A stretch of DNA of 28,152 nucleotides from the IMG/VR virus record IMGVR_UViG_638341086_000001, positions 1 to 28,152 of that record. One strand, given 5' to 3'. Below, piece by piece: positions 13,054 to 13,713 of the stretch. The position numbers were made by a program, and so were the translations under genes. How positions within the stretch are numbered: position 1 is the stretch's first letter; each line of letters begins with the position of its first letter. The notes beneath the pieces are model-generated. The model was not told the DNA's origin. It ran no database searches and worked only from the letters and a program-made list of their open reading frames with translations. The DNA comes from a virus. Taxonomy: Duplodnaviria > Heunggongvirae > Uroviricota > Caudoviricetes.

Positions 13054-13156
13054 ATGGCTGAAATCGGTCCAGTACAGTAAACGCGCTGGCGGCGGTGAAT
13101 ACCGGTCTTTCAGCTTGCTGGCTTTTTCGACAAGAGTTATTGGTGTGTCACGTTAA

Positions 13157-13549
13157 CCGGAAAAAGGAAAGTTTGAGAAACGCGATCTGGCACAGGCGGT
13201 TATTAATGCTGCCTACCTGGTGGCCTGTGCAGATGGTGAATGTGAGGCTTCCTAGAAAGCGAAGATCGAACAGGTACTGCGTAATCAGCCAGCGCTGTCC
13301 GCGTTTACGTCAGAAATTAATGCGATTAGCGCAACCATTATCGGTCAGCTGGATACGAACTTTAAAATTGGTCGTCGAGCGACATTGCGTGAAATTGAAG
13401 ATGTGAAACACGATACGCGTGAAGCGGAAGATGTGCTGGATGTGGCGGTGGCTATTGCGGAGGCAGACGGCGAAATTGAGCCGGAAGAGCGCAAGGTTCT
13501 GGAAGAGATTGCCGGTGTTCTGGGTCTTCGTCTGGAGAATCACCAGTGA
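13157..13549 (+). pseudogene. TerB-like (tellurite-resistance TerB fold) gene remnant: in-frame TAG and upstream frameshift
   Basis: Frame gives ...FEKRDLAQAVINAAYLVACADGECEAS-TAG(13253)-KAKIEQVLRNQ...DVLDVAVAIAEADGEIEPEERKVLEEIAGVLGLRLENHQ; the N-terminal part (..FFDKSYW..) is in another frame from 13099 with the shift in an A-run (13159-13173); no ATG start. Confidence 0.45.
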
Positions 13550-13713
13550 CGGTAAAACTGCGCCTGGCTGTGGCTGCACTCCTGCTGTTTCTGGTGGTGA
13601 TGGTGGATTTCACCAGCAGAATCATGTCGGTGCTGGCGGATGGGGTGCTGGTCTGCGGCATTGTGGTATTGCTGTGGCCGGTGATAAAAAGAAACAGCCT
13701 GCATAATGCTTGA
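13546..13713 (+). CDS. Hypothetical small membrane protein (about 55 aa)
   Basis: GTG start overlapping the TerB-like stop (GTGA) with GGAGA 7 nt upstream; TVKLRLAVAALLLFLVVMVDFTSRIMSVLADGVLVCGIVVLLWPVIKRNSLHNA, two hydrophobic segments. Start codon uncertain. Confidence 0.3.
   Translation: MTVKLRLAVAALLLFLVVMVDFTSRIMSVLADGVLVCGIVVLLWPVIKRNSLHNA

Follow-up and report, generated by a model that had tools for sequence, protein, structure and literature searches.

The stx-equivalent slot of an Escherichia coli lambdoid prophage probably holds a remnant of the phage accessory module tciA-tciB

What fills the late cargo slot of a lambdoid prophage when it is not the Shiga toxin genes (stx), and could the genes in it still be read into protein? 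The question is raised by IMG/VR virus record IMGVR_UViG_638341086_000001, of which positions 1 to 28,152 (the whole stretch analysed, hereafter the window) cover the early-right and late region of an Escherichia coli lambdoid prophage. Between the antiterminator gene Q and a nanS-p-type gene, at 13099-13713, an earlier sequence-only reading had placed a decayed cargo: a TerB-fold gene broken by an in-frame TAG and by a frameshift in an A-run, followed by a small hydrophobic open reading frame (ORF) coupled to it. With a probability of roughly 0.85, the interval is the remnant of tciA-tciB, a non-essential two-gene accessory module of phages, in which tciA has been inactivated twice. That tciA is a pseudogene can be said with high confidence. 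Part of this is already known, as RefSeq flags a copy of this tciA as a pseudogene, and both the slot and the phage gene family, which has a name and is non-essential, were known before.

The first gene of the interval is recognizable as tciA by several comparisons. When its TAG is translated as Glu, the predicted protein scores 55.3 bits with Pfam TerB (PF05099; cut-off 24.4; E 9.9e-15), the match spanning positions 2-109 of the 118 in the profile, and TciA of phage P1 finds the window by tblastn at E 3e-18, with 37.6% identity over residues 18-140. In a database search, the remnant is 96-98% identical to many proteins of 142-144 amino acids (aa), some of which represent clusters of hundreds of E. 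coli sequences, and more distant full-length relatives occur in Klebsiella, Salmonella, Serratia, Pantoea, and jumbo phages. An intact homologue falls into PHROG family phrog_632, "tellurite resistance" (E 7e-70), and a profile of the homologues matches the solved TerB structure of Klebsiella, 2jxu (E 2.3e-13). The AlphaFold2 model of the intact homologue P0013 (143 aa; 42.7% identity with P1 TciA over the full length), rather than of the window remnant, is all-helical with six main helices (predicted local distance difference test score, pLDDT, 87.3). The best fold match of this model in the PDB is 2h5n (probability 1.0; template modelling score 0.55-0.62), with a weak Foldseek E of 0.011. 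The TerB assignment of the sequence-only reading is thus borne out by both the Pfam and the 2jxu matches. In RefSeq, an identical copy and the copies of other strains are entered as pseudogenes of a "tellurite resistance TerB family protein" with an internal stop, and each of them directly precedes a "DUF3927 family protein" (WP_000216636.1).

The in-frame TAG at 13253 is present as it had been read and, as the second of two hits on the gene, would have replaced the GAG of Glu46. This residue is invariant across 45 aligned homologues, with identities down to 49%. It closes the first of two paired acidic motifs of intact TciA, ADGECEASE (residues 38-46) and ADGEIEPEE (116-124), and the equivalent Glu124 of the second motif is also invariant. 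A sequencing artefact was ruled out, since this TAG recurs in numerous complete genomes as well as in 62 of 120 listed IMG/VR contigs. These 120 copies, collected with an exact pattern around codon 46, form the population sample to which all counts of listed copies refer, and they are neither a random sample nor phylogenetically independent; the other 58 have GAG. In addition, the remnant has neither a start codon nor a ribosome-binding site (RBS) of its own ahead of the frame that closes at TGA 13547-13549. The first canonical in-frame start past its 5′ end is a GTG 11 codons before the TAG, and the first one past the TAG is TTG 13385, with no obvious Shine-Dalgarno sequence. With codons 1-17, the start, and the RBS absent, and with TAG at codon 46, the frame is not able to yield a TerB domain, and no TerB-fold product of the window tciA would be possible. 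As a separate observation, one E. coli allele (P0001) has TGG (Trp) at codon 46 in the Cys37 background that is typical of TAG alleles, and its Trp46 looks like a one-step pseudo-reversion of TAG and not like a change from GAG.

The 5′ end of the remnant is a junction. In BLAST comparisons, homology of the Stx2a phage type stops at 13170 and homology of the tciA type begins at 13168; the alignment of P1 TciA starts at residue 18, which corresponds to window position 13169, and homology with the DNA of intact tciA alleles is lost upstream of AAGTTTGAGAAACGCGAT. On the other side, the leader that follows the terminator is 96% identical over 111 nucleotides (nt), 13060-13170, to several Stx2a-converting phages just after their tR′. 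Positions 12578-13170 are collinear with Q, tR′, and leader of phage Stx2_EH2201, where the leader passes into the RBS and ATG of the first late ORF of that phage, which is unrelated and 66 aa long. Because of this collinearity, and because tciA homology is found only from codon 18, the A-rich run at 13161-13170 is foreign leader and RBS, and the frameshift that had been read in it falls away. A recombination or deletion at 13168-13171 would have fused tciA from codon 18 onward to a Q-tR′-leader of the Stx2a type. Start codon, RBS, and codons 1-17 would have been lost in the same event, together with the tRNA genes found ahead of copies with a native 5′ end. Among the listed copies, tRNA genes lie at most 1.2 kb upstream in 75 of 80 with a native 5′ end as compared with 0 of 28 with the junction, which accounts for the missing tRNAs that the sequence-only reading had remarked upon; ARAGORN detects no tRNA gene in the whole window. 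The junction allele is present in 477 genomes.

Two side observations concern the same DNA. Q, the tR′-like terminator, and the leader (12578-13170) are 90-96% identical to those of Stx2a-converting phages, and a short pR′-tR′ RNA, the positional equivalent of the small RNA (sRNA) StxS (PMC7547250), would be expected here despite there being no stx. Furthermore, an out-of-frame ORF (13095-13406, + strand) overprints the tciA remnant, and TTG 13173 sits 4 nt past the imported RBS-like run AAGGAAAG; an arginine-rich junk peptide of ~78 aa could be made from this TTG on the late transcript.

What the window copy has lost can be judged from intact lambdoid copies, for instance those of Escherichia phage JLK-2012, whose record names the genes tciA and tciB, of phage Evi, and of cluster P0013. 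These occupy the same slot, with Q, tRNAs, tciA, tciB, nanS-p, and holin, and the contigs of the intact 142-144-aa copies likewise carry Q, tRNA gene(s), TerB, DUF3927, and nanS-p. Their DNA is 90-95% identical to the window from 13168 on. In contrast to the window copy, they start with an ATG behind a native RBS, are 17 codons longer, have GAG at codon 46, and follow tRNA genes. The sequence-only reading had supposed a cargo that was once whole, and intact pairs of this kind do exist between Q/tRNAs and nanS-p in other E. coli prophages and phages.

It had also equated the slot with that of stx. In the window, tciAB lies on the + strand between Q/tR′ and the nanS-p and lysis genes, that is, in the late-operon cargo ("moron") slot, with the flanks as they had been described. 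Between the same landmarks, a Stx2a phage carries a 66-aa ORF, a methylase gene, three tRNAs, stx2AB, and iraM. Since the tRNAs and stx2AB lie there, the window slot, between Q/pR′/tR′ and nanS-p, is positionally the stx slot, although its cargo is unrelated to Shiga toxin. Stx-converting phages that match a query of 13060-13720 align over the first 111 nt only, and none of them has tciAB at megablast level. No stx is listed at the nearly identical RefSeq locus, in keeping with the earlier reading, and stx2AB is present in 0 of the 120 listed tciAB loci. From position and strand, we infer that tciAB would be transcribed from pR′ under Q antitermination.

Decay of tciA can be followed in the wider population. 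The 3′ part of tciA together with tciB is found at 3,929 places in 839 of 5,426 complete E. coli genomes, with a median of 6 per carrying genome. Among the listed copies, GAG is combined with an intact 5′ end in 43 and with a +1 shift, located in the A7 run of codons 6-8, in 13; TAG is combined with the junction in 30, with the A-run shift in 26, and with an intact 5′ end in 3; and in 5 copies the 5′ end is at a contig edge or unclassified. Fully intact tciA amounts to 40 of the 120. At least three types of lesions (TAG, +1 shift in the A7 run, and 5′ junction) are thus seen, both single and combined, which fits a gene under relaxed or negative selection. As for whether the two lesions originally read in the window are conserved, the TAG is widely shared, and the A-run shift is real in other alleles and not in the window. 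A further allele is that of O157:H7 (L008-L010, P0009), which has its own +1 frameshift in the A7 run of codons 6-8 as well as 6 nt inserted after codon 46; an alternative TTG start (MVFLVKK...) allows gene callers to rescue this tciA.

The second gene, tciB, is intact in the window. Its GTG overlaps the tciA stop as GTGA (13546-13549), and the coupled 55-aa hydrophobic ORF of the sequence-only reading is confirmed as a DUF3927 gene. The protein matches PHROG 1470, "TciB-like" (E 4e-30), is identical to WP_000216636.1, and aligns with P1 TciB at 57.6% identity (E 3e-9). Hydropathy indicates two hydrophobic segments with basic ends, and the gene may be translated from its own GGAG. Hence, of the decayed cargo that had been proposed, the TerB gene is decayed and its membrane partner, in the window, is not. 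In most listed copies, tciB is a normal ORF of 52-56 codons; truncations or shifts of it are seen in 12 of 25 junction copies, as opposed to 3 of 36 GAG copies whose 5′ end is intact. In the junction lineage, drift appears to affect the module as a whole, even with the window's own tciB intact, and tciB is probably drifting rather than maintained, as sister junction copies are often broken. Phage 434 (L013) presents a different arrangement, with tciB but no tciA and with a 247-aa membrane protein in the place of tciA. Its record also has a coding sequence for a 62-aa "putative membrane protein" (L013 3182-3370) just 3′ of DNA that aligns with the start of the STnc100 sRNA gene (L013 up to 3191).

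By sequence, the window pair belongs to the tciA/tciB family of phage P1 (PHROG 632 and 1470), and both PHROG families are placed in the moron/auxiliary category. A tblastn search finds the TerB protein in 132 phage records, among them P1, P7, and D6 (43-52% identity), jumbo phages of Erwinia and Salmonella, and phages of Vibrio and Pseudomonas. Phages that have the pair as such include P1, LMessi, a jumbo phage of Salmonella, and Pollock, which is virulent and N4-like. The DUF3927 protein of the window gives clear alignments with P1 TciB and with the ORF that follows tciA in Pollock; in jumbo phage pSal-SNUABM-04, the ORF downstream of the TerB gene is annotated as DUF3927 and is more divergent in sequence. 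In other genera (Franconibacter, Pantoea, Pseudescherichia, Buttiauxella, and others), a tciB homologue directly follows the TerB gene at 8 of 9 loci, and a class II holin lies within ~1 kb downstream at 5 of these loci; the nine were confirmed from a scan of genome contigs and serve as context, not as statistics. A search of the literature for TerB together with prophage, antiterminator, and holin returned no paper, and DUF3927 was mentioned, incidentally, in just two. The family phrog_3920 (48 positions, "unknown function") matches only the C-terminus of TciA (residues 96-143, E 4e-36) and is probably made up of short ORFs that gene callers placed on pseudogenes of tciA.

The closest described system is the tciABC operon of P1. 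As in the window, a TerB protein of ~141-143 aa is followed by a DUF3927 membrane protein of 54-55 aa, with the stop and start overlapping. The P1 genes tciA, tciB, and tciC all have overlapping stops and starts and adjoin tRNA genes, as do native lambdoid copies. By contrast, the window has no tciC-like ORF (the best match of P1 TciC against the whole window by tblastn has E 0.62), the setting is a lambdoid late operon and not the P1 ban region, and tciA is truncated and carries a nonsense codon. A 30-codon ORF at 13706-13798 was considered as tciC and rejected; it overlaps the tciB stop, lies in the STnc100 region, and has no similarity to P1 TciC and no PHROG match. In P1, tciABC is non-essential by CRISPR interference (PMC10695390), and within one subgroup of P1-like phage-plasmids about half have lost the tci operon (PMC9603915). 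The name, from "tellurite/colicin resistance/inhibition of cell division", was given by homology only. With TerB of the terZABCDE system (Klebsiella, PDB 2jxu), the phage protein shares PF05099 and, as predicted for the phage homologue, an all-helical bundle; it differs in that the phage gene stands alone with its DUF3927 partner. None of terZ, terA, terC, terD, and terE is annotated within ~3 kb in the RefSeq loci examined, and no Pfam domain of the ter families was found in the flanking proteins scanned. The TerB domain is also shared by the anti-phage systems Shango and Bunzi; it has been reported to be membrane-associated, and "membrane surveillance" has been proposed for these systems (bioRxiv 10.1101/2022.05.11.491447). 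In contrast to them, tciA has no helicase or ATPase partners, is phage-encoded and also present in virulent phages. Membership in a defence system was rejected, as the best PADLOC match is to an unrelated candidate, PDC-S48 (E 0.0028 over 35 residues), and tciB has none.

What the intact module does can only be suggested tentatively. It is possible, at rather less than even odds, that TciA forms a TciB-anchored complex at the inner membrane that modulates the membrane physiology of the infected cell. With its two hydrophobic helices, TciB would form a hairpin in that membrane and dock a cytoplasmic TciA there, and TciA would be a translationally coupled TerB helical bundle with two acidic A-D-G-E-x-x-x-x-E motifs. 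The pair would be made together with the late and lysis genes and might act in tolerance of pore-forming agents or membrane stress, in the exclusion of phages or colicins, or in lysis timing. The features that bear on this model are the kept adjacency with overlapping codons, the two segments of TciB, the position ahead of the holin, and the presence in virulent phages. In the window prophage, the function of the module would be lost.

Several points weigh against this account of a dead, doubly hit module. The window tciB is an intact ORF, identical to the very common WP_000216636.1, and may still function. We infer both expression from the late promoter and an interaction of TciA with TciB from position, overlap, and co-occurrence. 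The frequencies in the population sample are rough, as the exact-match pattern leaves out alleles such as the O157 one with its 6-nt insertion. Finally, the substitutions say little about selection after the TAG: private tciA changes in TAG copies comprise 3 non-synonymous and 5 synonymous ones, and those in GAG copies 4 and 3, respectively, in both cases too few to inform. Only private variants were counted, since imported recombinant patches and misregister at indels made up the bulk of the rare variants.

Among the other explanations, the one that survives best is that the loss of tciA was adaptive, for example by removing a cost or a negative regulator in prophage-rich Shiga toxin-producing E. 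coli (STEC), with TciB as the retained unit acting in lysis timing or exclusion. At least three tciA lesions do recur while most listed copies keep a 55-codon tciB, which has its own GGAG 8 nt before its start. Moreover, tciB is intact in 13 of 13 listed GAG copies with the A-run shift and in 25 of 25 scorable TAG copies with it, and phage 434 has tciB without tciA. We nevertheless consider an adaptive loss unlikely. In the junction class, to which the window itself belongs, tciB is broken in about half of the listed copies; private tciB variants are mostly non-synonymous; the counts of tciA and tciB lesions are confounded by clonal copies and by recombination between prophages; and the two genes are kept paired across very different phages.

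A dead tciA that persists as RNA is quite improbable. Under this explanation, the ORF would be the 5′ untranslated region or a processing substrate of a late transcript that delivers tciB, STnc100, or both. STnc100 begins 8 nt past the tciB stop and goes with the module in most listed copies, and prophage sRNAs are known to be frequent in this slot (PMC4104026; bioRxiv 10.64898/2026.05.13.724894). However, no Rfam family reaches its gathering threshold inside 13099-13713, no plus-strand promoter-like site was found there, and the linkage to STnc100 is the same in intact copies and hence gives no account of the decay. Persistence is more simply explained by the youth of the lesions together with hitch-hiking.

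Less probable again is a short product, a 54-aa C-terminal mini-TerB that would start at TTG 13385, contain the second ADGE...E motif, and be coupled to tciB. The ORF 13385-13549 is open, and phrog_3920 matches exactly the C-terminal piece, so that such ORFs are called repeatedly in phage genomes. Nonetheless, no Shine-Dalgarno sequence precedes this TTG, the fragment would be without four of the six predicted bundle helices, the lesions pile up in multiple-hit alleles as for a dead gene, and phrog_3920 is most simply the result of gene callers picking up the same pseudogene. Weakest of all is the notion that the gene keeps its own diverged N-terminus upstream (LAGFFDKS...), split off only by an A-run frameshift: the frame-1 peptide LAGFFDKSYWCVTLTGKRK has about the right length, its GFF motif recalls the MGFFGF... 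N-termini of Klebsiella homologues, and one listed copy has an A-run 1 nt shorter that brings this frame into register, but the frame has no start codon, 13060-13170 including this frame is found at 96% DNA identity upstream of the unrelated 66-aa ORF in Stx2a phages, P1 TciA and intact E. coli tciA align from codon 18 only, and native tciA 5′ ends are quite different DNA with tRNA genes before them.

The features of the slot are collected in Table 1. All those near tciAB are on the + strand, AgvB excepted. The Q region has ~90% DNA identity with phage Stx2_EH2201, and the tR′-like terminator is kept in other copies of the same allele (L002 and L003) and in the Stx2a phage. The sRNA genes STnc100 and AgvB, both known, had gone unmentioned in the sequence-only reading. 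STnc100 ends in a strong terminator (13879-13900) and is convergent with AgvB, which lies downstream in 33 of the 120 listed copies and is absent from L004, L008, and L012. The nanS-p-type gene is labelled "SASA family carbohydrate esterase" in RefSeq relatives. Strain Z1323HEC0393 (NZ_CP148357), which has the same tciA allele, matches ~82% of the first 25 kb of the window at 99.5% identity; in its otherwise identical locus (L001 4172-7083), nanS-p is truncated by ISEc22, an IS66-family element, as opposed to the intact gene of 616 aa in the window. A cis-regulatory RNA element, the ALIL pseudoknot (1456-1572, +; Rfam RF01497, 119 bits), overlaps the start of a 295-codon ORF (1501-2388) and may be the sign of an insertion sequence at the left end of the window.

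Table 1. Features of the late cargo slot and its boundaries, in window coordinates
Feature	Position	Strand	Basis
Gene of antiterminator Q (129 aa); 5′ limit of the slot	12582-12971	+	Pfam Phage_antitermQ, E 5.8e-44
tR′-like intrinsic terminator just 3′ of Q	13029-13055	+	Terminator scan: 8-bp stem with 5 GC pairs, then T-run
Late-operon leader of Stx2a-phage type, ending in A-rich RBS-like run CCGGAAAAAGGAAA; not TerB coding	13060-13170	+	BLAST
Putative recombination or deletion junction (AAAG), foreign leader to tciA codon 18	13168-13171	+	BLAST boundaries
tciA (TerB-family) pseudogene, codons 18-143 and stop	13169-13549	+	Pfam TerB; tblastn with P1 TciA; RefSeq
Premature TAG in place of GAG (Glu46)	13253-13255	+	Alignment to the DNA of intact alleles
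GGAG Shine-Dalgarno-like motif, 8 nt 5′ of tciB GTG	13534-13537	+	Read from sequence; presumed function
tciB (DUF3927), intact 55-codon ORF	13546-13713	+	Pfam DUF3927, E 4.3e-17
STnc100 sRNA gene, full length	13721-13911	+	Rfam RF02076, 144.7 bits (gathering score 47)
AgvB anti-GcvB sRNA gene, full length	13912-13973	-	Rfam RF02702, 96.5 bits (gathering score 56)
Second terminator	13998-14019	+	Terminator scan
nanS-p-type sialate O-acetylesterase gene; 3′ limit of the slot	14121-15971	+	Pfam DUF1737, SASA, and DUF6645

A bolder interpretation would make tciAB the default occupant of the late cargo slot, with recurrent selection for the loss of tciA in prophage-rich E. coli strains and with TciB keeping a role in holin and lysis tuning or in exclusion. 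We regard this as doubtful; if it were true, the TAG and junction alleles would be adaptive and not the outcome of neutral decay. For the reading preferred here, a decayed tciA-tciB module, what goes beyond existing annotation is the nature of the 5′ lesion as a junction, the rarity of intact tciA, and the keeping of the pair in lambdoid, P1-like, jumbo, and N4-like phages. With about one third of the listed lambdoid copies having an intact tciA, automated calls of "TerB/tellurite resistance" in STEC prophages are not functional genes by default. In turn, the joining of a Stx2a-type leader to codon 18 of tciA, with the tRNAs removed, shows how the cargo slot of these phages is rebuilt by recombination.

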